Shown in pieces: positions 8,801 to 64,000 of a stretch of DNA of 64,000 nt. The stretch lies in the sequence record OM632670.1. The stretch is one strand, 5' to 3'. Origin of the DNA: Escherichia phage BEU44. The position numbers were made by a program, and so were the translations under genes. The notes beneath the pieces are model-generated. The model saw only the letters and a list, made by a program, of their open reading frames with translations, did not search any database and was not told where the DNA came from. Every line of letters begins with the position of its first letter. Positions within the stretch are counted from its first letter, which is position 1.

Positions 8801-9139
8801 TTACTCCACAGCTTTCAGTTTAGCTTTCTTCGCAGCAGTATCTTTAGTTACCAGATTTTGCTGAAAGTCAGGCTGACTCATATGACCCAGGTAGCTGACG
8901 TTCAGGAATACAATATCCCGTACATCTACCACTTGACCAAAACGGTCATTCAGATTCTGAAACAGAGCAGACTGAGCACGTCCCAGGTCACGGAAAGTTA
9001 CCTGTTTCTCTTCAGTAAGCAACATAGTGTTCTGAACAATAACAGCACCTTCCTGACCATCTTTGTTATCAGGAATAACAAAAGTCAGTTGAGCTGCTAC
9101 TAACCAGTGATGCTTTTTCTCTTCAATTTGTTTGGTCAT
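8801..9139 (-). CDS. hypothetical protein (112 aa)
   Basis: ATG at 9137-9139 overlapping stop of polymerase C-fragment (ATGA). Confidence 0.4.
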   Translation of the reverse strand: MTKQIEEKKHHWLVAAQLTFVIPDNKDGQEGAVIVQNTMLLTEEKQVTFRDLGRAQSALFQNLNDRFGQVVDVRDIVFLNVSYLGHMSQPDFQQNLVTKDTAAKKAKLKAVE

Positions 9140-9966: not shown

Positions 9967-10543
9967 CTTTTCTATTTCTCCTCATAACATCATCCCACTC
10001 ATTTCGAACACCAAGTCGGTCAGCAGTAGTTCTGAGCATCTTATGCAAAGTTTCAGGACGCCTACCTATTTCAAAAGCAATGTCTTTAACTTGCTTACCT
10101 GCCAGCACCTCAAAGAGATACTTCTCTTTATCGTCAGCAGACATGTAACCAGGACGTAGCTTTGTTTTAAGTGCATGTTCAACATTCTGAGTAGCAGAGC
10201 ACCATTCCAGATTATCCTTATGACAATGCAGTTTATTACCGTCTTTATGGTTTACCTGTTCATAGCCATAAGGATTAGGGATGAAGTGTTTAGCTACCAG
10301 AATATGAAGTAGCTCTTGGTGATGTGTACCATCGCCATTAGCTAATCCAACCTTAAGGTATCCATTAGGATTGAGAGTCGGTTTTAGGGGTTGATTGTTT
10401 GCAAGATTTAAGATGAAACCTTCATCGGAAATCTTATACCGTTGTTCATAGAAGGCCACGGGTAAAAGCGTCATAGAACTCCTCACCGGTATAAGTTTTA
10501 CCATCATAAACGATTGTATCATCATCTCGGATATGATGGTCAA
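9929..10543 (-). CDS. HNH homing endonuclease inserted within the DNA polymerase gene
   Basis: Third frame relative to both polymerase fragments; core VNHKDGNK...NLEW...QN..HA; NUMOD4-like segment upstream; longest ORF starts TTG at 10543, first ATG codons at 10525/10522. Confidence 0.7.
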   Translation of the reverse strand: MTIISEMMIQSFMMVKLIPVRSSMTLLPVAFYEQRYKISDEGFILNLANNQPLKPTLNPNGYLKVGLANGDGTHHQELLHILVAKHFIPNPYGYEQVNHKDGNKLHCHKDNLEWCSATQNVEHALKTKLRPGYMSADDKEKYLFEVLAGKQVKDIAFEIGRRPETLHKMLRTTADRLGVRNEWDDVMRRNRKDVALRQLAKINS

Positions 10544-12410: not shown

Positions 12411-12417
12411 ACAGACC

Positions 12418-12945
12418 TCAAAAGATAAGATGGGTTCCCGCATAGTATTCGATAATCGGCAAGATTTTCTCATACTGACGGAGAGCCATAGCATCATTAT
12501 CCAGAGTAAATGCTGCCTTTCTGGTTCTCTGTAAGGATTTCAGATGACCCTGTTTATCCATAGCAATGAGGCATTCTGGCAATGCATCACGAACGTCTTG
12601 ATAAGTCTTACAGCCCTGAACCAGACGAAAGACCATCTGATTCACCATATGGACTTCTAGCAGAAGTTTACCTGCTTGTTCCAGATACTCCCGCATATCA
12701 TCCAGTAGGTGATTAGCCAGAGCCAGACGATGACCAGAAGGGGGTTGTTGTGATGAACGGGAACTCGAATAGAACTCCCCTAAATACAGAAACCCTGTTG
12801 AGTTGTATACAGCGAATGTTTCCCCATTACGTGTAATGATACTATCCAGCACTTTATCTAGCCGACGTAACTCGGCTAAGAATAATTCCTGAACTAGTTC
12901 ACTACTATTAGTCATTTCACGGATTTGTTTTTCACCCAGTTGCAT
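12418..12945 (-). CDS. hypothetical protein (175 aa)
   Basis: ATG at 12943-12945 just after helicase stop. Confidence 0.4.
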   Translation of the reverse strand: MQLGEKQIREMTNSSELVQELFLAELRRLDKVLDSIITRNGETFAVYNSTGFLYLGEFYSSSRSSQQPPSGHRLALANHLLDDMREYLEQAGKLLLEVHMVNQMVFRLVQGCKTYQDVRDALPECLIAMDKQGHLKSLQRTRKAAFTLDNDAMALRQYEKILPIIEYYAGTHLIF

Positions 12946-15164: not shown

Positions 15165-17255
15165 TTACTTCAAATGATGCTTCAGTTTATCAATTTGGCT
15201 GCATTCTTCAGGAGTCAGACCCAGTGCAGCATAAGATTTCTTAGCAGCACGTTTCACATCGTGAATGGCATGAGCTTTACAGTAATCAGACATACCTTTG
15301 TCATTCAGATAGCTACGAATAACATCAGCATTCCGACTACGAGTGATTGTAGTTTTCTTAGGTGCAACAGTTTTATCCTGTTTGACTACTTTTTCTGGCT
15401 TAGGTTTATTAGCACGAGCATCAATCAGTTTCTGAACCATGTCACCACTGAAGCCTAAAGAAGCCCATGACTTCTTACATTTGCCCTTAGCAGCAATGAT
15501 TTCATCAGCCAGTGTAATAGCTTCATTAGAAGTCTCTGCTTTCAGGAACTGGTTCCAAAGGTCTTTAAGAATTTCCATCTTAGTCTTCTTAATAGGTTTA
15601 ACATCCGTTGCCTTCACTGGTTCAGCTTTAGGATTAGTTGCCGTAAAGCTCTCTTCCATATTCAAGGCAGTTTTCTTAATTACTGGTTCATCTGGAATAA
15701 CGATGTCTTCCTCATCATCCAGATAATTACGGGTGAGTTCTGAATAAGTCAGATTGGTTCCATAATGACCACCAACCAGTACCTGACGGGAAGGTTCAGG
15801 GTGATTACCACTGAGAACCATGTTCAGGATTTCCGTACCACCCTCAATGGTGGAGATTGGATTGCCATTATTAACATGGTCACGAATAGCATCAGGTAGC
15901 TTGGTAATGATGTGATAAGCAGATACACGCATCTTAGTAACATCGTATTCTGGTACTGCAAATACATCCTCTGGAGCAACTTTACCAATAATGGTTACGT
16001 TGCCTGAGAAATTACGAATGTATTGCAGAGAAGCTACGTGCAAACCATGAGAACAGTCTTTACGACGGTTCTGGTCTACAAGGTTTTCTTTAACCATTAC
16101 ACGCATACCAACGCATTGCTCAATCTTCCTAGAATGGCAATCAACAAATACATCATCCATTACGTCTTTGAGATGTTCAGGATTGTCTTTGCTTTCCAGA
16201 CGTTTGAAGATAACAATGGAGCCATCATCTGCAATTGGCAGGTCACCTTTTTCCATAAACTTCATCAGGTCTTCAACAGAGTGACGACGTTTATCAATTA
16301 CAGTAGACAGACGTTCAAGGAACTTAGTAAAGCCTTTATAGTCTTTCAGGTTTGCAGATTGACGGATGTGGCGGTGTAGGTTCTGAACATCAGGAACCAC
16401 CTTATCATTCACTACAGCTACAATAGTCTCTTCATTCTCATTCAAGTCAGTATGAAACTCATAAGCATCAGTAGCGACAGCACCCATAGCTTTCAGCTTA
16501 GTTGATGCAGCTTCCAGCTTTTCCTTATTGGTTGGCTTTGTGGCCTTTACAGCAACCTTAGCAGGAATACCGTCTTCCAGTTTGTTATAGACAGAGATAA
16601 CACCCTGAGTGTTATTCAGACGTCTTACAAACTCTTTAGCCTGCGTCTCTGTGAGCCAATCAAATACTTTGAATGGGGTTGGTTGAGCCAGCAGGTTATT
16701 GACATATTCACTGGTTCTTCCTGAGATTTCACGGATAACATGAATAACCTCAATACGATGATTCCGTGGGTCTACATCTGTAATCCATACAGCATAGTTA
16801 CCGTAAAAACGCTCATGAGTAACTGTCATTTCTGGTTCAGGTGCTTTTAATGATGCATGTTGTACAGCAAGAGTTTTGCCTACAGCATTAGCAATAAAAG
16901 CATTGAAAGCAGTGGGTTTAGCACCTAACTCTACAGGTGATACATAAGGGACTTGTTCTTCCTCTTCCCCTAAGAAGAACTCTTGTAGCCTCTTCTTAGT
17001 AATACGGAAGAATTTAACAAAGCCACCTGTATCACGTTCAGCGTCCAGAAACTCCTGACGAATCTGAGCTTCGATAGTGACATCCACTTCGATAATCTTA
17101 CCTGGGGTAAGATTCTTTTCTTTTGCTTCAGCAACAATACGTGGTACACGGGCATCCCCTTGGGGGATGACCATAGTAGAACCATCTGGTTGCCATAAGG
17201 TGAGGTTACGACTGTCTACTGACAGGGCAATAATGGCGAGATAATTTCGTTTCAC
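15165..17255 (-). CDS. hypothetical protein (696 aa)
   Basis: Long uninterrupted ORF, GTG start at 17253-17255; no motif recognised. Confidence 0.45.
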   Translation of the reverse strand: MKRNYLAIIALSVDSRNLTLWQPDGSTMVIPQGDARVPRIVAEAKEKNLTPGKIIEVDVTIEAQIRQEFLDAERDTGGFVKFFRITKKRLQEFFLGEEEEQVPYVSPVELGAKPTAFNAFIANAVGKTLAVQHASLKAPEPEMTVTHERFYGNYAVWITDVDPRNHRIEVIHVIREISGRTSEYVNNLLAQPTPFKVFDWLTETQAKEFVRRLNNTQGVISVYNKLEDGIPAKVAVKATKPTNKEKLEAASTKLKAMGAVATDAYEFHTDLNENEETIVAVVNDKVVPDVQNLHRHIRQSANLKDYKGFTKFLERLSTVIDKRRHSVEDLMKFMEKGDLPIADDGSIVIFKRLESKDNPEHLKDVMDDVFVDCHSRKIEQCVGMRVMVKENLVDQNRRKDCSHGLHVASLQYIRNFSGNVTIIGKVAPEDVFAVPEYDVTKMRVSAYHIITKLPDAIRDHVNNGNPISTIEGGTEILNMVLSGNHPEPSRQVLVGGHYGTNLTYSELTRNYLDDEEDIVIPDEPVIKKTALNMEESFTATNPKAEPVKATDVKPIKKTKMEILKDLWNQFLKAETSNEAITLADEIIAAKGKCKKSWASLGFSGDMVQKLIDARANKPKPEKVVKQDKTVAPKKTTITRSRNADVIRSYLNDKGMSDYCKAHAIHDVKRAAKKSYAALGLTPEECSQIDKLKHHLK

Positions 17256-17279
17256 GAATTTTCTCCAGTAAATTATTAA

Positions 17280-17666
17280 TTAACTACTACGCTTTTCAGC
17301 CATTGCTTGTAATACAAACACAGCCATATCAGAGGCCATGTCATCGGTTATTGCTTCTGCATTGCCATCAATGAACATCTGGTCTTCAGACCATTCATCC
17401 AGCATACGTTGTACTTCTGCCAGACCTGCCTGAACCATTGTTTTATTAGGAGATAGCCATAGTTGGCGTTCTTTAGATAGCTCTGCAATACAGATACAAA
17501 GAGAAGCAATATTTGCAGGACAAACTGCAATATCTTCTACTTTGGAATATTCAGACAGCTTATGGGATTCGCCTGTTTTGGCATGGATGATATTTGGGTC
17601 AATCATGAATTTCTTCCAGGTTATGAGTAGGAACAGTGAAGAATGGGTAGCTACCATCTTCCTCAA
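17280..17666 (-). CDS. hypothetical protein (128 aa)
   Basis: ORF; 68-nt overlap with upstream ORF. Confidence 0.3.
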   Translation of the reverse strand: MRKMVATHSSLFLLITWKKFMIDPNIIHAKTGESHKLSEYSKVEDIAVCPANIASLCICIAELSKERQLWLSPNKTMVQAGLAEVQRMLDEWSEDQMFIDGNAEAITDDMASDMAVFVLQAMAEKRSS

Positions 17667-17832
17667 GAGTTACTGAGGTATGTGGGACACCAGTAGCACG
17701 AGTGTCATCATGAGCAACGCCGTAATCATACTGAAGGCATTCATAAACAATGTCTCCTTTCTCATGTGACTGACCAGCAGCACTACCCATTACAGGCTTA
17801 CCCTTAATACGAAATTTACGTGGTTTAGCCAT
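17599..17832 (-). CDS. hypothetical small protein
   Basis: ATG at 17830-17832 preceded by AGGAGG; longest ORF extends to 17850. Confidence 0.3.
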   Translation of the reverse strand: MAKPRKFRIKGKPVMGSAAGQSHEKGDIVYECLQYDYGVAHDDTRATGVPHTSVTLEEDGSYPFFTVPTHNLEEIHD

Positions 17833-17856
17833 ATGGCCTCCTATGTACATGGAATC

Positions 17857-17884
17857 AAAAAAATTGCCTCCATGTAGGAGGCAA
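17857..17884 (-). terminator. intrinsic terminator
   Basis: 8-bp stem ttgcctcc/ggaggcaa (17864-17871, 17877-17884) preceded on plus by a 7-A run (17857-17863) = U-run on minus transcript; downstream of thyX. Confidence 0.6.
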
Positions 17885-17929
17885 ATAGCGGAGTTTATTA
17901 TGAGTGGTCTACACCCACAAAAGACCTAC

Positions 17930-18871
17930 TTAGTGGATGCATTCATCTGCAAGCAGCTTACGGAATTGAATCCAGCCACACAGATTACCTGAGTATAAAC
18001 GTAAATTTCTGTCCATGTGGCTAATGCCATTTTCCCATGTAGATGGGTCAGTAGGCTCATTTAAGCCTTTACTCATTACATGCTGAGGAGTTGCTTGATG
18101 TTCAGTAGGACTTGCGTGAACAGGCTTACTTTCAACCAATTTAGAGAACAAACGCAGGTCTTCTTCGATAGTAGAAGGAGTGCCTTTAAAGTTGTTATAA
18201 GAAGCACGGGCACAACGAGCAGCAGAGATTTTTACTAACAGGCAATTAATTTCATCACTACTTGGTTCATCACGAGTAATTCGTTGATGTTTGCAATAAT
18301 CGTAAGCATCGAGGTAATCACTATTAGTAATGTACGGCAAATGCCATTCCCCAGCCAACAAGGTACGGGGTTTTGATTGGTCATACTGTTCCTTCATCTT
18401 AGTAGCCAATTCACAAATCTCTGGTTGAGCATCGGGATGGATACGTAAACCAAAGAAGTTATTCCATTGAGTAGCTGTCACTACTACACGGATATGCGTG
18501 AATGGTTCCAGAATACGATTAACAATCTGCTTATGTACTTGTCCACGACGAAGTTGTTCAGCATACACAGCAGCAGCAGAGGCAGCATTTTCCCAAATGA
18601 ACTCAGCATCCTTAATCTCCATAGGAGTGAGTTCTTCACTTGCCTGCATTCCTTTCTGGTTCTTACCCCAATGTACTGGCATTACTGGTTCATTACGAAC
18701 TTGCTCAATAAGGCGTTGGGTAGGAATAGCACGACTACTGGAAGCATTACGATTAAGTGCTCGGTGAGTCATAAATTCTGAATGAATAAAACGCGGATAA
18801 ACCAGCTCCATTGTTACCAGACGGTCACCAGAAAGAGTAATACTATCAGCGAGGATTTTTGCATTAATCAT
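17930..18871 (-). CDS. thyX: flavin-dependent thymidylate synthase ThyX
   Basis: MTHRALNRNASSSR fits the ThyX RHR-x7-S signature; ATG at 18869-18871 two nt after upstream stop; longest ORF extends to 18928. Confidence 0.7.
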   Translation of the reverse strand: MINAKILADSITLSGDRLVTMELVYPRFIHSEFMTHRALNRNASSSRAIPTQRLIEQVRNEPVMPVHWGKNQKGMQASEELTPMEIKDAEFIWENAASAAAVYAEQLRRGQVHKQIVNRILEPFTHIRVVVTATQWNNFFGLRIHPDAQPEICELATKMKEQYDQSKPRTLLAGEWHLPYITNSDYLDAYDYCKHQRITRDEPSSDEINCLLVKISAARCARASYNNFKGTPSTIEEDLRLFSKLVESKPVHASPTEHQATPQHVMSKGLNEPTDPSTWENGISHMDRNLRLYSGNLCGWIQFRKLLADECIH

Positions 18872-31603: not shown

Positions 31604-31635
31604 AAAATTAAAAAGGACTACCCGAAGGTAGTCCT
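31604..31635 (-). terminator. intrinsic terminator
   Basis: 9-bp stem aggactacc/ggtagtcct (31614-31622, 31627-31635), CGAA loop, preceded on plus by aaaattaaaa; 8 nt after stop at 31643. Confidence 0.6.
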
Positions 31636-32136: not shown

Positions 32137-32157
32137 CCAAAAGAAGCGGAGCTTCTT
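32137..32157 (-). promoter_or_regulatory. hairpin promoter of N4 virion-RNAP type (P2-like)
   Basis: catccaaaagaagcggagcttctt: 7-bp stem aagaagc/gcttctt (32141-32147, 32151-32157), loop gga; matches the N4 P2 promoter sequence as I recall it; predicted +1 near 32138 for leftward transcription. Confidence 0.65.
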
Positions 32158-32605: not shown

Positions 32606-32624
32606 CCATAAGTTGCGAAGCAAC
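32606..32624 (-). promoter_or_regulatory. hairpin promoter of N4 virion-RNAP type (P1-like)
   Basis: ccataag + stem gttgc/gcaac (32612-32616, 32620-32624) with loop gaa; same spacing and CCA..AAG element as the other two; 47 nt upstream of ATG at 32560. Confidence 0.55.
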
Positions 32625-44794: not shown

Positions 44795-45387
44795 GAAGAA
44801 AGTTGGTGGTGTTGGAGGAGTTATTGCAGCAATCATTGCTGCTGTATTTGCTGTTGAGGGTGGATACGTTAATGACCCCAAAGACCCAGGAGGTGAAACT
44901 AATCATGGTGTAACTATTCAGGTTGCTCAAAAGCATAAGCAAGAACTAGAGTCGATGTATAACTGGGATGGTTCAATGAAGAACTTAACTCAGGAAATGG
45001 CATCAAGTATTTATTACAACGATTACATCTTGAAGCCTGGCTTTGTTAAGTTTGCAGATGTATCACCGGCGGTAACAGAAAAACTAGTAGATGCTGGTGT
45101 TAATACTGGACCTGCAAGACCATCTCGTTGGTTACAAGAATCTCTTAATGCTTTCTCCAGAAATGGCAAAGACTACCCTAAAATACAAGTTGATGGTAAA
45201 GTCGGTTCTGGAACTCTAAGTGCATATAAGAGCCTTCAGAATAAACGAGGCAAAGTAGAAGCCTGTAAGCTCATTTTGAAGTCTCTGGATGGTAAACAGT
45301 TAAACTACTATTTATCTCTTAATATGCCTGAGTACACTACAGGATGGATTGCTAACCGTATTGGTAATGTCCCTCTGGAGAGGTGTA

Positions 45388-45407
<20 letters not shown>
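44781..45407 (+). CDS. N-acetylmuramidase endolysin (GH108 family) with N-terminal signal-anchor-release-like segment
   Basis: GH108 motif EGGYVNDPKDPGGETNHGVT; N-terminal Gly/Ala-rich hydrophobic segment VGGVGGVIAAIIAAVFAV; GTG start at 44781 with AGGAGG SD. Confidence 0.65.
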
Positions 45408-48191
<2,784 letters not shown>

Positions 48192-51760: not shown

Positions 51761-52669
<909 letters not shown>

Positions 52670-52672
52670 TAC

Positions 52673-55330
52673 ATGGGACTGTTTAGCAGTAAGACTAAAA
52701 TCTACGTAGCATCCTCTGTCTACAATTTGGCAGGGGATATACATAAACGTCCAAATTATTTAAAGACTACGGTGATTGGTAACATCGTCAGTAAATCTGA
52801 CTTTAGTATGGGTGATACCATCACTGACTCTTATTTAAATGGACCTGGTATTCGTTTACGTAGATTCCCTGGTTGGGCTGCAACTAACTATGACCCTTCA
52901 ATTGGTATTGCTTATGGGAACTTGTCAGTACTGTCTCAGATAGACCCTGAAGTAGTTAAATGGCAAGTTCCTCAAAAAGCAGGTTATGAGGTACAGGTTC
53001 AGAGCAGTAGGATTGGATTTGGTGATTTTGAGGAATGGGCTGATAAATTCCTCTATGAGAATTATCCAGACCGTATTACTGAAGAGTTTGAAATAGACAT
53101 CATGGATGATGACAGGATTGTACTCACTGCTACTGATGGTAGTGAGTTATCCTTTTATCCAAAGAATTACAGTCAGGATGCAATGTATCTGTATGTGAAT
53201 TATTACTACATACAGCCTACTAGTGTTGCAGACCCAGTGGTTCATCCTGTTGTATCTGTATCATCTGCTGATGACTTACCTTCTACTTCTGAATGGACTC
53301 AGGTATCTCAGAACCATACCCCTAAGTCAGCTACTCTGAAGACAGTTACTCATATTAAGAGTGTATTCTCTGATGGTAGACCTGATGAGGAAAGTACCAA
53401 TACTGAAGAAGAACAGGTTAGTTGGACTAACTTCTCAGATGTTTACGAGAAAGAATTTCGTGAACCAAGTGAAGTAGGCTTAATCATTATTCGTAAGACT
53501 ACAATGACCCAGGTACAGACTGGTACTGTATCTACTGGTTCCACTACAAACACTGAAGTTATTGATTTAGGTGGTGGGGTTACTGAAACCAGAACTACTA
53601 CAGTAACTACAGATACTTTAGGTTATACATGGTCTTATCAGAATACAGATGTAGTTACTACTCTGTCTGCTGGTGGTATGCCTCAACTGTTTATTTATAA
53701 ACAGAATAGTGGTAATGCTGTTCTTGATGCTTTGTTTATTAATAAAACAACCAATAACAGATTCTATTCATTCATCCCTATCCGTAGTGATAAGAACTGG
53801 ATTTCTGGTTCTACATATACTCTTTGTAAGAAAGCCTTTAAGAAGGCTACAGGGGGTAAGATTTCTGACATTATGGATGACCTGAAGAAGAATAAAGATA
53901 TTGGTGATATTCAGTATATCTATGCTGTATTTGGTTGTTCTCTTAACAGTCCTGAAAATACAGCTAAAGAGTACATATACAGGTTCTTCCAGTTAGTGAA
54001 TCAGTCAATGCCTGCTGACCCAAACTACCCAACTATGGATGCTTTGGTAGAAGGCTTTGCTCAGGCTAACAGGGACTTTGATGCCTACCAGGAATGGTGG
54101 AAATCTCGTAGTGGTAATAGGGATATTCCCATAGGGAAACCCCCTAAAAGACCCGTATATCCAACAATACCTTCTAAATCCATTAATATTCGTTCTAACG
54201 GTGGATACCGTTACAACATGACTATTAGTTGGAACTTCATTGAAGAGTCAGTTGGTTCGGGAAAAGCATTCTCTGGAGCCAAGAAAGGGCAGCTCAAGTT
54301 TGCTTATGAAGGTACTGTAGTCCTTATGCAGAAAGCCGTTATGTACTCTGAAAAGGGTAATGACAAAGTTGGGTTTAATATCTACAGGCTAGATAAGATA
54401 ACAATGTATTGGCAGGATGGGGATAATTCATGGAGGAAGATTTCTGTCTATGGCCTGAACCATAACAATAATGTTTACAAGAATAAATCTGTAAGCATTT
54501 CTGGTGTAGATGCACTAAATGATGATGAAGAGTCCGGATTTATCATCCCTCTTCATAACAACATTTATCGTAGTATGTCTTTGGTAAATGGTACTCAGTT
54601 ATCTACTGCATGTTGTTATCTGGTTCTTAACTCATATAAGAAAGTTAAGAAGAAATGGTATCAGTCTGGCATCTTTAAAGTAGTAGTGGTTGTTGTTGCA
54701 GTAGTAGTGTCTGTGTTCTTTACTCCTGCTGCTGGTGCTGGGGTAATGGGTACTGCTGCTTCTATTGGTGCTGCATTAGGTTTTGCAGGGTTAGCTGCTA
54801 TTATCGTTGGGGCTGTGGCTAATGCCATTGCAGCTATGATTCTGATGTCCATTATTCAAACAGTCTCTGTTAGTCTGCTTGGGGATAAGATTGGAATCAT
54901 TGTTGCTACCATTGCCTCTATGGTAGCCATGAATGTTGGTACAGCTTTATCCACTGGTTCATCCATGTCTACGATGCTGGGTGAAATGATGAAAGCAGAT
55001 AACATCATTAAACTCACTTCATCTGTAGGAAATGGCATAAGTGATTACATCAATGCTTCTGCTATGGAAACTGTCAAAAAGACAGAGAAACTTATGGCAG
55101 AGTACCGTGACCAGATGAAAACCATTCAGGAAAAGTACGAGGAAATGTTTGGCACTGAGGGCATGGGTTACATTGACCCAATGAACCTAACTAATGTAGG
55201 CCAACAATTTGAGCCATTGGATTCATTCCTTAACCGTACTCTTATGACTGGTCATGATATAGCTGACATGTCTAACAACATGATTACCAACTTTGCAGAT
55301 ATAACGTTGCAGCTTGATTTAGATACGTAA
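52673..55330 (+). CDS. large internal virion protein (885 aa) with polytopic hydrophobic C-proximal segment
   Basis: Residues about 665-760 form consecutive Val/Ala/Gly-rich hydrophobic helices; upstream of the virion RNAP gene. Confidence 0.4.
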   Translation: MGLFSSKTKIYVASSVYNLAGDIHKRPNYLKTTVIGNIVSKSDFSMGDTITDSYLNGPGIRLRRFPGWAATNYDPSIGIAYGNLSVLSQIDPEVVKWQVPQKAGYEVQVQSSRIGFGDFEEWADKFLYENYPDRITEEFEIDIMDDDRIVLTATDGSELSFYPKNYSQDAMYLYVNYYYIQPTSVADPVVHPVVSVSSADDLPSTSEWTQVSQNHTPKSATLKTVTHIKSVFSDGRPDEESTNTEEEQVSWTNFSDVYEKEFREPSEVGLIIIRKTTMTQVQTGTVSTGSTTNTEVIDLGGGVTETRTTTVTTDTLGYTWSYQNTDVVTTLSAGGMPQLFIYKQNSGNAVLDALFINKTTNNRFYSFIPIRSDKNWISGSTYTLCKKAFKKATGGKISDIMDDLKKNKDIGDIQYIYAVFGCSLNSPENTAKEYIYRFFQLVNQSMPADPNYPTMDALVEGFAQANRDFDAYQEWWKSRSGNRDIPIGKPPKRPVYPTIPSKSINIRSNGGYRYNMTISWNFIEESVGSGKAFSGAKKGQLKFAYEGTVVLMQKAVMYSEKGNDKVGFNIYRLDKITMYWQDGDNSWRKISVYGLNHNNNVYKNKSVSISGVDALNDDEESGFIIPLHNNIYRSMSLVNGTQLSTACCYLVLNSYKKVKKKWYQSGIFKVVVVVVAVVVSVFFTPAAGAGVMGTAASIGAALGFAGLAAIIVGAVANAIAAMILMSIIQTVSVSLLGDKIGIIVATIASMVAMNVGTALSTGSSMSTMLGEMMKADNIIKLTSSVGNGISDYINASAMETVKKTEKLMAEYRDQMKTIQEKYEEMFGTEGMGYIDPMNLTNVGQQFEPLDSFLNRTLMTGHDIADMSNNMITNFADITLQLDLDT

Positions 55331-55343
55331 CAGGAGAATCCTT

Positions 55344-55796
55344 ATGGATACTAATTTCCTTTTTGGAACCCCATCTGCACAAAGCAATTTTGGCTATGGG
55401 TATGGTTCCTTTAATACCCCAACCATGAACTATAACCCTATGCAATCCGGCATCCTTAGTAATGATTGGCTTCAGAATATTACTGGTGGTGCTACAGGGA
55501 ATACCGGTGGGCAGACTCAAGGGCTTACTGACCAACTGGGTCTGAACATTCCTACCTTCCAGTTGGGGTTAGGTGGTCTTAACGCACTGGGTAATATCTA
55601 TGGTGCATTACAGGCTAACAAGTTAGCTAAGAGTCAGTTCTCTTTTGCTAAAGATGTTACTAACACTAATCTGAATAACCAGATTAAGTCCTATAACACT
55701 GCTCTGGAAGACCGTGCTCGTAGTCGTGCTGTTGCAGAAAATCGTGACCAATCTACGGCTGATGCTTACATTGCAGCTAATCGCTTAACTCGTTAA
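55344..55796 (+). CDS. hypothetical virion protein (150 aa)
   Basis: Gly/Asn/Thr-rich; ATG 55344 with GGAG SD. Confidence 0.35.
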   Translation: MDTNFLFGTPSAQSNFGYGYGSFNTPTMNYNPMQSGILSNDWLQNITGGATGNTGGQTQGLTDQLGLNIPTFQLGLGGLNALGNIYGALQANKLAKSQFSFAKDVTNTNLNNQIKSYNTALEDRARSRAVAENRDQSTADAYIAANRLTR

Positions 55797-55806
55797 GAGG
55801 TATCAC

Positions 55807-57741
55807 ATGGCTCAAATTACATGGCGTAATGTTGATGCTCCTTCTTTCTCTGGTGTTGGGGATAGTATTCGTACTTTCTCCAATATGCTGGGTAATGCCA
55901 CTGCCGGATTGAGTAATGCATTAGGTGATTTTCGAGACTCTGCAAGACAGCAAGCTGGTGATGCAATTATGGCTGAAGCCATGCGTTACCAAGACCCTAA
56001 TGAGTATCGTAATGCCTTAGCTTCTGGAGCATTATTTGCTGGCTATGACCCTTCTCTAATTTCTTCTCGTACTATGGAGAACTTAGATAATCGTGCTGGC
56101 AATCTGTTAGACCAAGCATCTAAACAACAAAATCTGGATTTCACTCGATACAGTAATGACAGAACCATGAAGGTAAATGCAGCTACTGATGCTGCTGCTC
56201 CTGCATTGCAGGAATTGGCTCTGGCTTATCAATCTGGTGACCCAAGAAAGGTTCAGGCAGCACAGGCTCAGTATGGAGACGTATTAAAAACCCTTCCTGC
56301 TGGTGTTGTTATGGACTACATGAACAACCTTCAAGGACAGGGTACTGCTGGTATTGGTCAACGTCGCAGCTTATTCAACTTAGGTGTTGATATGCGTAAC
56401 GATGCGGATACTCAGGCTGCTATGCAGTTACTGAATAATATTCGTCGTGGTGCATACAGTGCTGACGATGCTCGTATGCTTGCAGAGGGTACGTTCGACC
56501 AAATGTCACCAGGAGCAGTAAGTCGTGCACTATCTCAGTTAGATAGAGCATACCCAGGTGCATATACTCCGGGAACTGGTTCTGCATCTCTATCTCCTCC
56601 TGGTACTCAGGGTACTCGGAATGGTTCTGCATATGACACTACCTATAAGTTCACACCAACTGATGTACCTATTACTCAGATGAACTTAGGTCAGGTGGTT
56701 CAGCATCAAGACACTATGAAGAAGACACTAGGTGCTTCTCCTGTTGGTGCATACCAGATTAACCAAGATACCCTTAAAGACTTTGCTCCAAAGGTATTTG
56801 GTGAAGATTGGCAGAACATCCCTATGTCTCCGGAGAACCAAGACAAACTGGGTGAAGCTATTTTTAATGCTCGTAAGAATGGCAATCTGAAGAGTACATG
56901 GGCTGCTTTACCAGATGATACTCCGGGTGCTTATAAGAACCTGTCATGGGATGAAATGAAGGATTACATTGCTCAAGCAGAAACAGGTAATTCTATTAAT
57001 CCATTACAGGAACAAGCATTCACTTCTGTTGCTGGTAATACTGTTGGTACTCGTAATATGCAGAATATTGGTAATACTCTGCTGCCTGAATACCAAGCTG
57101 CTACTGTTGACCCTTCTACGACTGGTCAGGTGGCTAAACGTATTATTGATAACAATGAACTGAAAGGCATTAACCAAGGTGCACTGGTTCGACAAATCAA
57201 TGAGGTAGCAAAACAGAATGCTATTTCTCCCGCTATGGCAGGAGCAATCATTCAACGCAGTATCACTGGTAAACCAGAGGGATGGTTTAGTGGTATTCGA
57301 AATGCCTTTGATACTGATGTTATTGATTTGGGTGGTGATTACCAACTGGATAAAGCAGCCGTAGAAGCAAATGCAAAACTTGCAACTACTGGTACTGCTA
57401 TTGAACAGAATGCTCGTAATCAGCTTACTGCACAAATTCAATCAAACATCTATGCAGCACAGAATACGTTAGATACTGCACTTGCTGATTTACGTGAAGT
57501 ACAGCGTCGTATTCAGACCGGTCAGGAAAACCTTAGAAGTGTACTACCTCGCTATCAGGAGCGAGTTAATACTGCTAAACGTCTTCTTGATGGTGCTCGT
57601 AGTGCTGTAGCTGCTGACCCTCAGAATTTGGATATTAAGAGCCTACAAAATATTAAACAGGAAGAGAGCGAGGCAAACCGGAGAAGTTTAGGCAGAGATG
57701 CCGGACGTCGATTGGGTATCCCTGATATATTTCCTCGTTAA
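55807..57741 (+). CDS. hypothetical virion protein (644 aa)
   Basis: ORF immediately upstream of virion RNAP gene; ATG 55807 with AAGAGG SD. Confidence 0.35.
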   Translation: MAQITWRNVDAPSFSGVGDSIRTFSNMLGNATAGLSNALGDFRDSARQQAGDAIMAEAMRYQDPNEYRNALASGALFAGYDPSLISSRTMENLDNRAGNLLDQASKQQNLDFTRYSNDRTMKVNAATDAAAPALQELALAYQSGDPRKVQAAQAQYGDVLKTLPAGVVMDYMNNLQGQGTAGIGQRRSLFNLGVDMRNDADTQAAMQLLNNIRRGAYSADDARMLAEGTFDQMSPGAVSRALSQLDRAYPGAYTPGTGSASLSPPGTQGTRNGSAYDTTYKFTPTDVPITQMNLGQVVQHQDTMKKTLGASPVGAYQINQDTLKDFAPKVFGEDWQNIPMSPENQDKLGEAIFNARKNGNLKSTWAALPDDTPGAYKNLSWDEMKDYIAQAETGNSINPLQEQAFTSVAGNTVGTRNMQNIGNTLLPEYQAATVDPSTTGQVAKRIIDNNELKGINQGALVRQINEVAKQNAISPAMAGAIIQRSITGKPEGWFSGIRNAFDTDVIDLGGDYQLDKAAVEANAKLATTGTAIEQNARNQLTAQIQSNIYAAQNTLDTALADLREVQRRIQTGQENLRSVLPRYQERVNTAKRLLDGARSAVAADPQNLDIKSLQNIKQEESEANRRSLGRDAGRRLGIPDIFPR

Positions 57742-57756
57742 TTTCTACCATAATAC

Positions 57757-57778
57757 AAAAGCCCTTCGGGGCTTTTTT
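57757..57778 (+). terminator. intrinsic terminator with UUCG tetraloop
   Basis: aaaagccc ttcg gggctttttt; 16 nt after stop of preceding gene. Confidence 0.65.
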
Positions 57779-57841
57779 CTCGTCCTTACACTAGGTATAG
57801 TGTGATTTCTAATAGATATAAGTTTGTATAGGAAACCTACT

Positions 57842-60800
57842 ATGTCAGTATTTGATAGACTGGCTGGGTTCGCAGACAGCGTAACCAATGCAAAGCAAGT
57901 TGACGTCTCTACTGCAACCGCCCAGAAGAAAGCTGAACAAGGTGTCACTACTCCTCTTGTTTCTCCTGATGCTGCTTATCAAATGCAAGCTGCCCGTACT
58001 GGTAATGTTGGGGCTAATGCATTTGAACCAGGGACAGTGCAATCAGATTTCATGAATCTGACTCCAATGCAAATCATGAATAAGTATGGGGTTGAGCAAG
58101 GCTTACAACTTATCAACGCTCGTGCTGATGCAGGGAACCAGGTATTCAATGATTCAGTTACTACAAGAACTCCTGGGGAAGAACTGGGGGATATTGCTAC
58201 TGGTGTTGGTCTTGGTTTTGTTAATACCCTTGGGGGCATTGGTGCTCTTGGGGCAGGCTTACTCAACGATGACGCAGGTGCTGTTGTTGCTCAACAATTG
58301 AGTAAGTTTAATGATGCTGTCCATGCTACCCAAAGCCAAGCATTACAAGATAAACGTAAGCTCTTCGCTGCTCGTAACTTAATGAGTGAGGTAGAGAGTG
58401 AACGTCAGTATCAAACAGATAAGAAAGAAGGCACTAATGACATAGTAGCTTCCTTATCTAAATTTGGACGTGATTTTGTAGGTTCAATTGAGAATGCTGC
58501 TCAAACTGACTCTATTATTTCTGATGGGTTAGCAGAAGGGGTAGGTTCTCTATTAGGTGCTGGTCCTGTATTAAAGGGTGCATCTTTACTGGGTAAAGCA
58601 GTTGTTCCAGCAAATACTCTTCGTAGTGCTGCATTGGCTGGTGCTATTGATGCAGGTACTGGTACTCAGTCCCTGGCTCGTATTGCTTCTACTGTAGGCA
58701 GAGCTGCACCAGGTATGGTTGGTGTTGGTGTAATGGAAGCTGGTGGTGCATACCAACAAACTGCTGATGAAATTATGAAGATGAGTCTTAAAGACTTAGA
58801 GAAGTCTCCTGTTTATCAGCAACATATTAAAGATGGTATGTCTCCAGAACAGGCTCGTCGTCAGACTGCATCTGAAACTGGTCTTACTGCTGCTGCTATT
58901 CAATTACCTATTGCTGCTGCAACTGGTCCTCTGGTATCTCGTTTTGAGATGGCTCCTTTCCGTGCTGGTTCTTTAGGTGCTGTAGGTATGAACCTTGCCC
59001 GTGAAACAGTGGAAGAAGGTGTTCAGGGTGCTACAGGCCAACTGGCTCAGAATATTGCACAGCAACAAAACATTGATAAGAACCAAGACTTGCTTAAAGG
59101 TGTCGGTACACAAGCTGGTTTAGGTGCTCTTTATGGCTTTGGTTCTGCTGGTGTTGTACAGGCTCCGGCTGGTGCTGCTCGTTTAGCAGGTGCTGCAACT
59201 GCTCCTGTATTGCGTACCACAATGGCTGGTGTTAAAGCTGCTGGTAGTGTAGCAGGTAAGGTTGTTTCCCCTATTAAGAACACTTTGGTAGCTCGTGGTG
59301 AGCGGGTTATGAAGCAGAATGAAGAAGCATCTCCTGTTGCTGATGACTATGTTGCACAGGCAGCACAAGAAGCTATGGCTCAAGCACCAGAAGCAGAAGT
59401 TACTATTCGTGATGCTGTTGAAGCAACTGATGCTACTCCGGAACAGAAAGTTGCAGCACACCAGTATGTTTCTGACTTAATGAATGCTACTCGTTTTAAT
59501 CCTGAAAATTATCAGGAAGCACCAGAGCATATTCGTAATGCTGTAGCTGGTTCTACTGACCAAGTACAGGTTATTCAAAAGTTAGCAGACCTAGTTAACA
59601 CATTAGATGAATCTAATCCTCAAGCACTGATGGAAGCTGCATCTTATATGTATGATGCTGTTTCAGAGTTTGAGCAATTCATTAACCGTGACCCTGCTGC
59701 ACTGGATAGCATTCCTAAAGATTCTCCGGCTATTGAGTTACTCAATCGTTATACAAATCTGACAGCTAATATTCAGAACACACCAAAAGTAATTGGTGCA
59801 CTGAATGTTATTAATCGAATGATTAATGAATCTGCCCAGAATGGTTCTTTGGATGTGACTGAAGAATCCAGTCCACAGGAAATGCAGAACGTAGCATTAG
59901 CTGCTGAAGTAGCTCCTGAAAAGCTCAATCCAGAATCTGTAAATGTTGTTCTTAAACATGCTGCTGATGGTCGTATTAAACTGAATAATCGCCAAATTGC
60001 TGCCCTTCAGAATGCTGCTGCAATCCTGAAGGGGGCACGGGAATATGATGCAGAAGCTGCCCGTCTTGGATTACGTCCTCAAGACATTGTGAGTAAACAG
60101 ATTAAAACGGATGAGAGCAGAACTCAGGAAGGACAATACTCTGCGTTGCAACATGCGAATAGGATTCGGTCTGCGTATAACTCTGGTAATTTCGAGTTGG
60201 CCTCCGCTTACCTGAACGACTTTATGCAGTTCGCCCAGCACATGCAGAATAAGGTTGGAGCGTTGAATGAGCATCTTGTTACGGGGGATGCGGATAAGAA
60301 TAAGTCTGTCCACTACCAAGCTCTTACTGCTGACAGAGAATGGGTTCGTAGCCGTACCGGATTGGGGGTCAATCCCTATGACACTAAGTCGGTTAAATTT
60401 GCCCAGCAAGTTGCTCTTGAAGCGAAAACGGTAGCGGATATTGCTAATGCCCTCGCTTCGGCTTACCCGGAACTGAAGGTCAGTCATATAAAAGTTACTC
60501 CATTGGATTCACGTCTTAACGCTCCTGCTGCTGAGGTGGTCAAGGCATTCCGTCAAGGCAATCGAGACGTTGCTTCTTCTCAACCGAAAGCTGACTCCGT
60601 GAATCAGGTTAAAGAAACTCCTGTTACAAAACAGGAACCAGTTACATCTACTGTACAGACTAAGACTCCTGTTAGTGAATCTGTTAAAACAGAACCTACT
60701 ACTAAAGAGTCTAGCCCACAGGCTATAAAAGAACCTGTGAACCAGTCTGAAAAACAGGATGTTAACCTTACTAATGAGGACACCATCAAGCAACCTACTG

Positions 60801-63800
60801 AATCTGTTAAAGAAACTGAAACTTCTGCAAAAGAAAGCACAGTTACAGAAGAATTAAGAGAAGGTATCGATGCTGTTTACCCCTCATTGGTAGGTACTGC
60901 TGATTCTAAAGCAGAGGGTATTAAGAACTATTTCAAATTGTCCTTTACCTTACCGGAAGAACAGAAATCCCGTACTGTTGGTTCAGAAGCACCTCTAAAA
61001 GATGTAGCTCAAGCTCTGTCTTCCCGTGCTCGTTATGAACTCTTTACTGAGAAAGAAGTTGCTAATCCTGCTTTTAATGGGGAAGTTATTAAGCGATACA
61101 AAGAACTCATGGAACATGGGGAAGGTATTGCTGATATTCTTCGTTCCCGTCTGGCTAAGTTCCTTAACACTAAGGATGTTGGTAAACGTTTTGCTCAGGG
61201 TACAGAAGCCAACCGTTGGGTAGGCGGTAAGTTACTTAACATCGTTGAACAGGATGGGGATACCTTTAAGTACAATGAGCAATTGCTACAGACTGCTGTA
61301 TTAGCAGGTCTTCAGTGGAGACTTACTGCTACCAGCAATACTGCTATCAAAGATGCAAAAGATGTTGCTGCTATTACTGGTATTGACCAAGCTCTGCTGC
61401 CAGAAGGTTTAGTAGAGCAATTTGATACTGGTATGACACTCACTGAAGCAGTTAGTTCCCTGGCTCAGAAAATTGAGTCTTACTGGGGATTATCTCGTAA
61501 TCCAAATGCTCCATTGGGCTATACCAAAGGTATCCCTACAGCAATGGCTGCGGAAATTCTGGCTGCATTTGTAGAGTCTACTGATGTTGTAGAGAACATC
61601 GTGGATATGTCAGAAATTGACCCAGATAATAAGAAGACTATTGGTCTGTACACCATTACTGAACTGGATTCCTTCGACCCAATTAATAGCTTCCCTACTG
61701 CTATTGAAGAAGCTGTTTTAGTGAATCCTACAGAGAAGATGTTCTTTGGTGATGATATTCCTCCTGTAGCTAATACTCAGCTTCGTAATCCTGCTGTTCG
61801 TAATACTCCAGAACAGAAGGCTGCATTGAAAGCAGAGCAGGCTACAGAGTTCTATGTACACACTCCAATGGTTCAATTCTACGAGACGTTAGGTAAAGAC
61901 CGTATTCTCGAACTGATGGGTGCTGGTACTCTGAATAAAGAGTTACTTAATGATAATCATGCTAAATCTCTGGAAGGTAAGAACCGTTCAGTAGAGGACT
62001 CTTACAACCAACTGTTTTCCGTCATTGAGCAGGTAAGAGCACAGAGTGAAGACATCTCTACTGTGCCTATTCACTATGCATATAATATGACCCGTGTTGG
62101 TCGTATGCAGATGTTAGGTAAATACAATCCTCAATCAGCCAAACTGGTTCGTGAGGCTATCCTACCTACTAAAGCTACTTTGGATTTATCGAACCAGAAC
62201 AATGAAGACTTCTCTGCATTCCAGTTAGGTCTGGCTCAGGCATTGGACATTAAAGTCCATACTATGACTCGTGAGGTTATGTCTGACGAGTTGACTAAAT
62301 TACTGGAAGGTAATCTGAAACCAGCCATTGATATGATGGTTGAGTTTAATACCACTGGTTCCTTACCAGAAAATGCAGTTGGTGTTCTGAATACAGCATT
62401 AGGGGATAGGAAGTCATTCGTAGCATTGATGGCTCTTATGGAGTATTCCCGTTACTTAGTAGCAGAGGATAAATCTGCATTTGTAACCCCACTGTATGTA
62501 GAAGCAGATGGTGTTACTAATGGTCCAATCAATGCCATGATGCTAATGACAGGTGGCCTGTTTACCCCTGACTGGATTCGTAACATTGCCAAAGGTGGCT
62601 TGTTCATTGGTTCTCCAAATAAGACCATGAATGAGCATCGTTCTACTGCTGACAATAATGATTTATATCAAGCATCCACTAATGCTTTGATGGAATCGTT
62701 GGGTAAGTTACGTAGTAACTACGCTTCTAATATGCCTATTCAGTCCCAGATAGACAGTCTTCTTTCTCTGATGGATTTGTTCTTACCGGATATTAATCTC
62801 GGTGAGAATGGTGCTTTAGAACTTAAACGTGGTATTGCTAAGAACCCACTGACTATTACCATCTATGGTTCTGGTGCTCGTGGTATTGCAGGTAAGCTGG
62901 TTAGTTCTGTTACTGATGCCATCTATGAGCGTATGTCCGATGTGCTGAAAGCTCGTGCTAAAGACCCAAATATTTCTGCTGCTATGGCAATGTTTGGTAA
63001 GCAAGCTGCTTCAGAAGCACATGCTGAAGAACTTCTTGCTCGTTTCCTGAAAGATATGGAAACACTGACTTCTACCGTTCCTGTTAAACGTAAAGGTGTA
63101 CTGGAACTACAATCCACAGGTGCAGGAGCCAAAGGGAAAATCAATCCTAAGACCTATACCATTAAGGGTGAGCAACTGAAGGCACTTCAGGAAAATATGC
63201 TGCACTTCTTTGTAGAACCACTACGTAATGGTATTACTCAGACTGTGGGTGAAAGTCTGGTGTACTCCACTGAACAATTACAGAAAGCTACTCAGATTCA
63301 ATCTGTAGTGCTGGAAGATATGTTCAAACAGCGAGTACAGGAGAAACTGACAGAGAAGGCTAAAGACCCGACATGGAAGAAAGGCGATTTCCTTACTCAG
63401 AAAGAACTGAATGATATTCAGGCTTCTCTGAATAACTTAGCTCCTATGATTGAGACTGGTTCTCAGACTTTCTACATTGCTGGCTCAGAAAATGCAGAAG
63501 TAGCAAATCAGGTATTAGCTACTAACCTTGATGACCGTATGCGTGTACCAATGAGTATCTATGCCCCAGCACAGGCTGGTGTAGCAGGTATTCCATTTAT
63601 GACTATTGGTACTGGTGACGGCATGATGATGCAAACTCTTTCCACTATGAAAGGTGCACCAAAGAATACCCTCAAAATCTTTGATGGTATGAACATTGGT
63701 TTGAATGACATCACTGATGCTAGTCGTAAGGCTAATGAAGCTGTTTACACTTCTTGGCAGGGTAACCCTATTAAGAATGTTTACGAATCATATGCTAAGT

Positions 63801-64000
63801 TCATGAAAAATGTAGATTTCAGCAAGTTGTCCCCTGAAGCATTGGAAGCAATTGGTAAATCTGCTCTGGAATATGACCAACGTGAGAATGCTACTGTAGA
63901 TGATATTGCTAATGCTGCATCTCTGATTGAACGTAACTTACGTAATATTGCACTGGGTGTAGATATTCGCCATAAGGTACTGGATAAGGTAAATCTGTCC
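57842..64000 (+). CDS. virion-encapsidated giant RNA polymerase, N-terminal 2053 codons (3' end outside window)
   Basis: ATG at 57842 with AGGAAA SD; single open frame to window end; YVEADGVTNG with Asp at codon 1556 and KIFDGMNIG with Asp at codon 1948, the positions I recall for N4 vRNAP catalytic aspartates. Confidence 0.7.
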   Translation, partial: MSVFDRLAGFADSVTNAKQVDVSTATAQKKAEQGVTTPLVSPDAAYQMQAARTGNVGANAFEPGTVQSDFMNLTPMQIMNKYGVEQGLQLINARADAGNQVFNDSVTTRTPGEELGDIATGVGLGFVNTLGGIGALGAGLLNDDAGAVVAQQLSKFNDAVHATQSQALQDKRKLFAARNLMSEVESERQYQTDKKEGTNDIVASLSKFGRDFVGSIENAAQTDSIISDGLAEGVGSLLGAGPVLKGASLLGKAVVPANTLRSAALAGAIDAGTGTQSLARIASTVGRAAPGMVGVGVMEAGGAYQQTADEIMKMSLKDLEKSPVYQQHIKDGMSPEQARRQTASETGLTAAAIQLPIAAATGPLVSRFEMAPFRAGSLGAVGMNLARETVEEGVQGATGQLAQNIAQQQNIDKNQDLLKGVGTQAGLGALYGFGSAGVVQAPAGAARLAGAATAPVLRTTMAGVKAAGSVAGKVVSPIKNTLVARGERVMKQNEEASPVADDYVAQAAQEAMAQAPEAEVTIRDAVEATDATPEQKVAAHQYVSDLMNATRFNPENYQEAPEHIRNAVAGSTDQVQVIQKLADLVNTLDESNPQALMEAASYMYDAVSEFEQFINRDPAALDSIPKDSPAIELLNRYTNLTANIQNTPKVIGALNVINRMINESAQNGSLDVTEESSPQEMQNVALAAEVAPEKLNPESVNVVLKHAADGRIKLNNRQIAALQNAAAILKGAREYDAEAARLGLRPQDIVSKQIKTDESRTQEGQYSALQHANRIRSAYNSGNFELASAYLNDFMQFAQHMQNKVGALNEHLVTGDADKNKSVHYQALTADREWVRSRTGLGVNPYDTKSVKFAQQVALEAKTVADIANALASAYPELKVSHIKVTPLDSRLNAPAAEVVKAFRQGNRDVASSQPKADSVNQVKETPVTKQEPVTSTVQTKTPVSESVKTEPTTKESSPQAIKEPVNQSEKQDVNLTNEDTIKQPTESVKETETSAKESTVTEELREGIDAVYPSLVGTADSKAEGIKNYFKLSFTLPEEQKSRTVGSEAPLKDVAQALSSRARYELFTEKEVANPAFNGEVIKRYKELMEHGEGIADILRSRLAKFLNTKDVGKRFAQGTEANRWVGGKLLNIVEQDGDTFKYNEQLLQTAVLAGLQWRLTATSNTAIKDAKDVAAITGIDQALLPEGLVEQFDTGMTLTEAVSSLAQKIESYWGLSRNPNAPLGYTKGIPTAMAAEILAAFVESTDVVENIVDMSEIDPDNKKTIGLYTITELDSFDPINSFPTAIEEAVLVNPTEKMFFGDDIPPVANTQLRNPAVRNTPEQKAALKAEQATEFYVHTPMVQFYETLGKDRILELMGAGTLNKELLNDNHAKSLEGKNRSVEDSYNQLFSVIEQVRAQSEDISTVPIHYAYNMTRVGRMQMLGKYNPQSAKLVREAILPTKATLDLSNQNNEDFSAFQLGLAQALDIKVHTMTREVMSDELTKLLEGNLKPAIDMMVEFNTTGSLPENAVGVLNTALGDRKSFVALMALMEYSRYLVAEDKSAFVTPLYVEADGVTNGPINAMMLMTGGLFTPDWIRNIAKGGLFIGSPNKTMNEHRSTADNNDLYQASTNALMESLGKLRSNYASNMPIQSQIDSLLSLMDLFLPDINLGENGALELKRGIAKNPLTITIYGSGARGIAGKLVSSVTDAIYERMSDVLKARAKDPNISAAMAMFGKQAASEAHAEELLARFLKDMETLTSTVPVKRKGVLELQSTGAGAKGKINPKTYTIKGEQLKALQENMLHFFVEPLRNGITQTVGESLVYSTEQLQKATQIQSVVLEDMFKQRVQEKLTEKAKDPTWKKGDFLTQKELNDIQASLNNLAPMIETGSQTFYIAGSENAEVANQVLATNLDDRMRVPMSIYAPAQAGVAGIPFMTIGTGDGMMMQTLSTMKGAPKNTLKIFDGMNIGLNDITDASRKANEAVYTSWQGNPIKNVYESYAKFMKNVDFSKLSPEALEAIGKSALEYDQRENATVDDIANAASLIERNLRNIALGVDIRHKVLDKVNLS

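Follow-up and report, generated by a model that had tools for sequence, protein, structure and literature searches.

The virion RNA polymerase (vRNAP) of coliphage N4 is an important model enzyme: a 383-kDa protein that must traverse a tail channel of ~30–35 Å and that transcribes from DNA hairpins. Published crystal and cryo-EM structures show a right-hand fold. In contrast to T7 RNA polymerase, the N4 enzyme is ~4 times larger, has additional domains at its N- and C-termini, is packaged inside the virion, and recognizes hairpin DNA rather than duplex promoters. N4 vRNAP lacks cysteine (PMC2784036). The same paper, citing Kazmierczak et al. 2002, assigns R424, D559, K670, Y678 and D951 to its motifs T/DxxGR, A, B and C. 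These are numbered in mini-vRNAP, which comprises residues 998–2103 of the full-length protein (PMC13434306). The N-terminal domain (NTD) binds lipid and is flexible; it has been proposed to anchor the protein at the inner membrane during ejection, and to contribute to the section of the ejection complex that lies in this membrane (PMC13434306, PMC13492108; both 2026).

The window analyzed here is the whole 64,000-nucleotide stretch of Escherichia phage BEU44 (OM632670.1), and all features are given on its + strand. Translation reproduced the single open frame reported in the preliminary description, which starts at ATG 57842 and stays open up to the end of the window (57842–64000; 2053 codons, no stops). 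The chance of an open run of this length, computed with the base composition of the window, was ~10^−56. The closest in-frame stop 5′ of the ATG was TGA 57803, and AGGA, a Shine-Dalgarno-like ribosome-binding site, lay 8 nt 5′ of the ATG (57830–57833). The product begins with MSVFDRLAGF, as do the N4 protein from its annotated start and the chains deposited in the PDB. Its residues 1–2053 aligned end to end with residues 1–2053 of the 3500-residue N4 vRNAP chains 9pnr and 11gp (4443 bits), and in the N4 record the corresponding stretch is labelled ‘virion RNA polymerase’. The earlier reading of the frame as a giant virion RNA polymerase very closely related to N4 was thereby borne out, with 98.1% nucleotide and 99.4% amino-acid identity to N4 gp50 within the window. 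Four Pfam families (PF21894, PF21867, PF21769, PF21624) matched the product with 78–327 bits (E 1e-22 to 1e-98), the gathering cut-off for these families being 27 bits. Among PHROGs, phrog_2206 (‘virion RNA polymerase’) matched residues 25–916 and phrog_414 (‘RNA polymerase’) matched residues ~1319–1704 (E 6.5e-6). Cysteine was absent from the 2053 residues in the window, and also from all 3500 residues of the vRNAP of phage BEU5. On the open frame, the alignments and the DNA identity, we concluded that 57842–64000 is almost certainly the first 59% (codons 1–2053 of 3500) of an Enquatrovirus gp50, an orthologue of N4 gp50 from a source almost identical to N4. The gene is already known and the N4 enzyme structurally solved; it holds nothing new.

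PDB entries 3c2p, 2po4 and 3q0a aligned to residues 997/998–2053 of the product, residues 1–1056 of 2po4 corresponding to 998–2053. PDB and Pfam matches placed the polymerase domain (residues 1007–2053 of 1007–2101) at 60860–64000, with its last ~50 residues falling past the window end. Within it, Pfam matches were vRNAP_dom_2 (residues 1324–1440), vRNAP_plug (1456–1538), N4_RNAP_helical (1616–1832) and vRNAP_dom (1914–2053). The preliminary description had pointed to aspartates at 1556 and 1948 as the likely catalytic pair, and both were seen in the translation, in YVEADGVTNG (from residue 1552) and KIFDGMNIG (from residue 1945), respectively. An offset of 997 converts full-length into mini-vRNAP numbering. 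Because mini-vRNAP comprises residues 998–2103 and 2po4 aligns as above, D1556 (62507–62509) and D1948 (63683–63685) equal D559 of motif A and D951 of motif C; that is, alignment to N4 vRNAP put both aspartates on published motif residues. At the same offset, R1421 (62102–62104; context YNMTRVGRM) equals R424 of the T/DxxGR motif, and K1667 to Y1675 (62840–62866; K-x7-YGS) holds K670 and Y678 of motif B. All five published catalytic residues were in place, as were the promoter-recognition residues R119 and W129. A palm location of the catalytic aspartates D1556 and D1948 would follow from how little the product differs from the N4 enzyme of known structure, and from the published work. Residues 998–2053 differed from the crystallized, active N4 enzyme at five positions, and the full 1106-residue mini-vRNAP of BEU5 differed at six, none of them catalytic; the polymerase domain is ~99.5% identical to the enzyme of the crystal and cryo-EM structures.

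The order of motifs (T/DxxGR, A, B, C) is the same in vRNAP as in T7 RNA polymerase and single-subunit RNA polymerases. Compared by eye, motif A reads DGVTNG in vRNAP and DGSCSG in T7 (DG..G in both), and the K-x7-YGS spacing of motif B equals that of T7 K631–Y639. A BLASTP comparison of the polymerase domain with T7 RNA polymerase aligned the T/DxxGR motif alone (YNMTRVGRM against YNMDWRGRV; E 0.026) and did not place motifs A and C; in pairwise comparison the similarity to T7 was barely detectable (best E 0.026).

The NTD (residues 1–906; 57842–60559) is rich in Ala and Gly and has no known fold. The claim that the N-terminal ~1000 residues are low in recognizable motifs held up, for no Pfam family scored above threshold in residues 1–1323, and a PDB sequence search with residues 1–919 (E ≤ 10) matched N4 vRNAP itself and no other solved structure. 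Residues 1–1000 contained 14.7% Ala and 7.3% Gln, compared with 9.9% Ala in the remainder; ‘Ala/Gln-rich’, the term used earlier, agrees with these values, and ‘Ala/Gly-rich’ fits the first half better (the first 500 residues also have 12% Gly). The NTD was conserved in 216 schitovirus records. We know of no vRNAP structure in which the NTD is resolved. Putative membrane-spanning helices occupy residues 224–278 (58511–58675; range from PMC13434306), and a hydropathy peak at 237–255 fell within this range, with further peaks at 118–140 and 347–365. The suggestion of an ejection or channel domain at the N-terminus agrees, as regards ejection, with the 2026 papers on the lipid-binding, flexible N4 domain and its predicted membrane-spanning helices at 224–278. 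A low-complexity linker (residues 907–1006; 60560–60859) separates the NTD from the polymerase domain; its 100 residues include T16 E14 V12 S12 K11, and the linker of N4 vRNAP is likewise ~100 flexible residues long (PMC13434306).

The gene lies directly 3′ of gp52 and gp51 in the late block, in the order gp54-gp53-gp52-gp51-vRNAP as in N4. Gene gp51 (66 kDa virion protein; 55807–57741), directly 5′ of vRNAP, is collinear with N4 45126–47060, and gp52 (16.5 kDa virion protein; 55344–55796) was matched to the N4 gene map; both products are ejection proteins in N4 (PMC13434306). A Pfam search of gp51–gp54 returned no families. The 100-nt gp51–vRNAP intergenic region folds at −24.4 kcal/mol (z = −2.55) and contains a predicted terminator-like hairpin, AAAAGCCC-UUCG-GGGCUUUU, followed by a U-rich tail (57757–57776). 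This fold may act as a terminator. A scan of 57300–58100 for consensus promoters and terminators reported nothing, and so did not flag this hairpin; the terminator scanner probably missed it by taking the full 8-bp stem and so consuming the U-run. A −10-like hexamer, TATAGT, at 57796–57801 could have a promoter role, and the sigma-70 scan around the vRNAP start (57300–58100) found no full promoter.

Candidate promoters of vRNAP were sought as hairpins with a 5–7 bp stem and a 3-nt purine-rich loop at the genome’s left end. The window contained three such hairpin promoters, all on the expected template strand, with the common 5′ flank CCAWAA. One (GTTGC-GAA-GCAAC, 5′ flank TCCATAA; 32612–32624) corresponds to N4 ~89–101, upstream of gp1, and from its position would be P1. 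The second, P2 (GAAGC-GGA-GCTTC, 5′ flank TCCAAAA; 32143–32155; N4 ~558–570, upstream of gp2), carries what we take to be the exact P2 hairpin sequence of the crystallography literature. The third (GCTGC-GGA-GCAGC, 5′ flank ACCAAAA; 28154–28166; N4 ~4547–4559) lies upstream of the RNAP1/RNAP2 genes and is probably P3. The literature names four early hairpin promoters in N4, P1–P4; strict and relaxed scans for P4 gave no further convincing site.

Region 57842–64000 was 100% identical in DNA to phages BEU5, BEU13, BEU14, BEU42 and BEU51, and 98.1% identical to N4. These five are unannotated ‘UNVERIFIED_ORG’ Escherichia phage records (OM632664–OM632672) from sewage in Russia. BEU5 was identical to window 51842–64000 (the last 12,159 bases), and over window 2513–5200 the five records were 99.9%, not 100%, identical. 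By sequence comparison, the source genome is indistinguishable from the BEU5 group over the vRNAP region. Among the five records identical over the gene’s first 6,159 bases, BEU5 alone was followed past the window end. Its frame continued for 4,344 bases to a TAA, in good agreement with the ~4.4 kb foreseen in the preliminary description, and gave 3500 aa, the length of N4 gp50; no stop or frameshift occurred just past 64000. The single giant ORF, expected at ~3400–3800 codons, thus has 2053 codons in the window and 3500 in the identical BEU5 record. By analogy with records that match the final 12 kb exactly, the remaining 41% of the gene, at its 3′ end, would be intact.

Compared with N4 gp50 (AAO24831.2; PDB 9PNR, 9PNQ, 11GP, 3C2P, 2PO4), the start codon, domain order and catalytic residues were the same, as were the neighboring genes and hairpin promoters. 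The window product differed by 12 substitutions in 2053 residues and BEU5 by 24 in 3500. Seven of those in the window fall in residues 1–997 (N182S, R245K, A297V, N671D, N816D, N981T, T996A) and five in residues 998–2053 (K1006R, T1073V, D1514G, T1761A, A1837T). None hits a residue of known function; D1514G maps to the plug insertion, which occludes the active site, and R245K to a predicted membrane-spanning stretch. Differing codons between the BEU5 and N4 genes were 185 synonymous and 24 non-synonymous, indicating purifying selection along the whole vRNAP gene.

Elsewhere in the window, an rIIA block was displaced to positions 1–2526, with junctions at 2526/2527 and 17254/17255; the displaced block is present in none of the BEU5, BEU13, BEU14, BEU42 and BEU51 records. 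A real transposition was considered and dropped as the leading view, because two breakpoints match the CDS start and stop exactly, to the base, and the junction is in no database record; the displacement looks like a record-handling artefact. Region 32713–64000 was collinear with N4. The rest of the window was not collinear with any database record, and the source sequence is therefore not fully trustworthy. The DNA polymerase gene is interrupted by an HNH endonuclease insertion that is already known; an Rfam search of 9700–10800 (E ≤ 1) for a group I intron surrounding the endonuclease gene had no matches. Rfam matches at gathering thresholds and tRNAs were absent from the whole window.

The displaced rIIA block bears on whether the vRNAP gene of the source genome might be broken soon after 64000, leaving a pseudogene or a truncated product. 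The window does end within the gene, and the block rearrangement is at least one irregularity in its source sequence. However, the five identical records, the intact 3500-codon frame of BEU5, the purifying selection seen along the whole gene against N4, and the requirement of N4 early transcription for vRNAP, known from the literature, all argue for an intact gene, and we consider a break highly improbable. It is even harder to credit that the product of the long frame is a structural or ejection protein which kept polymerase-like sequence and lost polymerase function. The N-terminal 1000 residues, which carry no catalytic motifs and serve ejection and membrane anchoring, would suit such a protein, but every catalytic and promoter-recognition residue is intact, the five differences from the active N4 enzyme in residues 998–2053 are non-catalytic, and the genome also retains the cognate promoters. 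There is a slim chance that substitutions relative to N4, such as D1514G or R245K, alter enzyme regulation or membrane anchoring, and nothing in the data favors it; if they did, the BEU-type allele would be a natural variant helpful for dissecting autoinhibition or ejection.

An intact, functional vRNAP of the N4 type would be expected to work as the N4 enzyme does, and we carry over packaging, ejection and hairpin-promoter activity to the BEU-type allele by analogy. As shown for N4, ~4 copies of this near-identical protein would be packaged per capsid. According to the N4 literature, NTD residues 1–906 would bind lipid and tether vRNAP at the inner membrane, and the ~100-residue linker would join the NTD to a polymerase domain of the T7-like single-subunit type (residues ~1007–2101). 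There, the catalytic metals would be bound by D1556 of motif A and D1948 of motif C, with R1421, K1667 and Y1675 completing the active site. Beyond the window, the C-terminal domain would autoinhibit vRNAP and be required for encapsidation, as in N4. At the early promoters, the enzyme would recognize hairpins that are extruded from supercoiled DNA and, again as described for N4, would transcribe the early genes independently of host RNA polymerase.

The value of the finding is limited to correct annotation, as this is the best-known gene of an N4-type coliphage, to which the BEU-type copy of gp50 adds only a few substitutions that look neutral. Of N4 vRNAP, only the NTD is still poorly understood, and experimental work on it is active elsewhere.

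Translation of the window showed a single open frame of 2053 stop-free codons from ATG 57842 to the window end (57842–64000, + strand), as the preliminary description had it; given the base composition of the window (41% G+C), the probability of such a run by chance was ~10^-56. The frame was closed upstream by an in-frame TGA at 57803, and the ATG was preceded by AGGA at 57830–57833. The sole other in-frame start was TTG 57824, six codons 5' of the ATG. We considered this start unlikely because it lies 5' of the AGGA ribosome-binding site, and because the deposited N4 protein begins MSVF.

A sequence search of the PDB aligned residues 1–2053 with residues 1–2053 of 3500-residue chains named 'Virion DNA-directed RNA polymerase' (9pnr, 11gp and others), and aligned the crystal chains of mini-vRNAP, the N4 polymerase domain (3c2p, 3q0a, 2po4), with residues 997/998–2053. 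Megablast against phage records revealed 100% identity of the virion RNA polymerase (vRNAP) region to Escherichia phages BEU5, BEU13, BEU14, BEU42 and BEU51, and 98–99% identity to another ten Enquatrovirus records. Among these was N4 (98.1%), whose record labels the matching stretch 'virion RNA polymerase'; the part of the protein encoded in the window was 99.4% identical to that of N4. Thus, the close relatedness to N4 first suggested for this giant gene was borne out by end-to-end alignment and at both the nucleotide and residue levels. PHROG 2206 ('virion RNA polymerase') matched both halves of the product, and four vRNAP-specific Pfam families all fell within residues 1324–2053. The gene is already known, and public phage records contain annotated close homologues of it.

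Structures from crystallography and cryo-EM cover residues ~1007–3500 of N4 vRNAP. Mini-vRNAP comprises residues 998–2103 (PMC13434306), in agreement with the offset of our PDB alignment. The published N4 catalytic residues R424, D559, K670, Y678 and D951 (PMC2784036, citing Kazmierczak et al. 2002) correspond to 1421, 1556, 1667, 1675 and 1948 in full-length numbering, and all five were present. Therefore D1556 (YVEADGVTNG) and D1948 (KIFDGMNIG), which had been picked out as the catalytic aspartates, are exactly those of motif A (D559) and motif C (D951). R119 and W129, named in the N4 literature as promoter-recognition residues, were also present. BLASTP against T7 RNAP did not place D1556 or D1948, and aligned the T/DxxGR motif only (YNMTRVGRM versus YNMDWRGRV, E 0.026). 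Compared by eye, the contexts of the motifs were in agreement: the T7 enzyme has DGSCSG where vRNAP has DGVTNG, and the two share K-x7-YGS, a motif C Asp that follows a hydrophobic run, and the order of motifs.

The final 12,159 bases of the window have an exact match in the BEU5 record, whose vRNAP frame continued without early stop or frameshift to a TAA at 3500 residues, the length of N4 gp50. The part beyond the window is thus 4,344 bases, close to the 4.4 kb anticipated. There was no cysteine among the 3500 residues, a published peculiarity of N4 vRNAP (PMC2784036). Between BEU5 and N4 vRNAP there were 24 residue differences, half of which (12) fell within the window; differing codons were 185 synonymous and 24 non-synonymous, a split that is as expected under purifying selection. 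The gene has all testable defining features of an N4-type vRNAP.

Folding of the 100-base spacer between gp51 and the vRNAP gene revealed a hairpin, AAAAGCCC-UUCG-GGGCUUUU, followed by U-rich sequence (57757–57776). It looks like an intrinsic terminator; a consensus scanner did not list it as one. TATAGT occurred at 57796–57801, 5' of the vRNAP gene, with no recognisable -35 hexamer.

N4 vRNAP recognises promoters in the form of hairpins that supercoiled DNA extrudes, in which the guanine at -11 is key. Three vRNAP-type hairpins were found, all on the + strand, which is the template strand of the early genes (- strand in the window): GTTGC-GAA-GCAAC upstream of gp1 (32612–32624), GAAGC-GGA-GCTTC upstream of gp2 (32143–32155) and GCTGC-GGA-GCAGC upstream of the RNAP1/RNAP2 genes (28154–28166). 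All three shared a CCAWAA 5' flank and a G-R-A loop, and the second exactly matches the P2 hairpin of the crystallography papers. One 2026 paper mentions four early N4 promoters, P1–P4; searching the window for perfect stems with 3-nt loops did not yield a fourth. A 9-bp hairpin, AGGACTACC-CGAA-GGTAGTCCT, lay at 31614–31635 with A/T runs on either side, and its - strand reads as an intrinsic terminator just 3' of gp2, between the P2 unit and gp3.

Elsewhere, a 702-base insertion (~9880–10581) that N4 lacks interrupted the gene for the family A DNA polymerase directly after the FCGLDFASLEDR segment, splitting it in two. The insertion carried a 204-aa HNH_3/NUMOD4 homing endonuclease ORF (9929–10543, - strand) between polymerase pieces of 683 aa (10446–12497, -) and 276 aa (9136–9966, -), each of which gained a short new head or tail. 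A search around the insertion detected no group I intron. VEc25, PMBT57, Pollock and others have the same insertion, and their annotation shows two DNA polymerase ORFs with an HNH homing endonuclease between them, whereas N4, 3HA13 and OLB145 do not.

Relative to the N4 map, the window runs as the reverse complement, yet is not collinear with it. The virion DNA of the phage is linear. At 32712/32713 the two ends of the N4 genome met, with N4 position 1 joined directly to 70153, and the source is thus a circularly permuted or collapsed-terminal-repeat assembly. In addition, a complete rIIA-like CDS (N4 15460–17985, reverse complement) occupied positions 1–2526 and abutted N4 position 32009, inside gp47, at 2526/2527. 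It was gone from its usual site between rIIB and gp32, where a base-exact deletion at 17254/17255 left rIIB with GTG in place of ATG as its start codon. We consider this displacement a probable artefact rather than a real transposition, because a circularly permuted contig put through a 'start the record at gene X' step that went wrong would show this pattern, in which two breakpoints coincide with CDS edges to the base and the third is arbitrarily placed. That is, rIIA would have been moved to the front of the permuted contig without the contig being rotated. The BEU5 record begins exactly at the rIIA ATG, and the displacement junctions matched no phage record. No tRNA genes, and no Rfam families at gathering threshold, were found across the 64 kb.

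The first 1000 vRNAP residues were rich in Ala (14.7%) and Gln (7.3%), with 12% Gly besides in residues 1–500, and Pfam placed no family at threshold ahead of residue 1324; both the composition and the scarcity of motifs had been remarked on before. The domain at the N terminus (NTD, spanning residues 1–906) lacks resolved density in both 2026 cryo-EM studies. An AlphaFold 3 prediction gives it two helical subdomains and membrane-spanning helices at 224–278 (PMC13434306); our hydropathy peaks were at 118–140, 237–255 and 347–365, the second within that range. The preliminary description's 'ejection or channel domain' comes near to present views. Insertion into nanodiscs has been shown for the NTD on its own, which is proposed to form the inner-membrane complex with the gp51 C-terminus (PMC13434306). 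The published low-complexity linker, residues 907–1006 (PMC13434306), was enriched in Thr, Glu, Val, Ser and Lys. With residues 1–919 as query, tblastn matched 216 schitovirus records that carry the domain, almost all of them labelled virion or other RNA polymerase. Because only residues roughly 150–440, the Gly/Ala-rich hydrophobic part, still aligned in the most distant relatives (roseophages, Pollock group), our data suggest that this part may be the conserved functional core of the NTD.

In N4, about four vRNAP copies are packaged; gp52 and gp51 leave first and build an envelope-spanning conduit, after which vRNAP is expelled (PMC13434306). The polymerase domain has a right-hand fold, and the C-terminal domain, which here falls outside the window, stabilises an autoinhibited state and is required for encapsidation. 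The ejection-protein genes gp52 (55344–55796) and gp51 (55807–57741) lay upstream of the vRNAP gene in the N4 order, gp51 immediately so. By analogy, we infer that packaging, ejection and action as in N4 would carry over to the 99.4%-identical copy in this phage.
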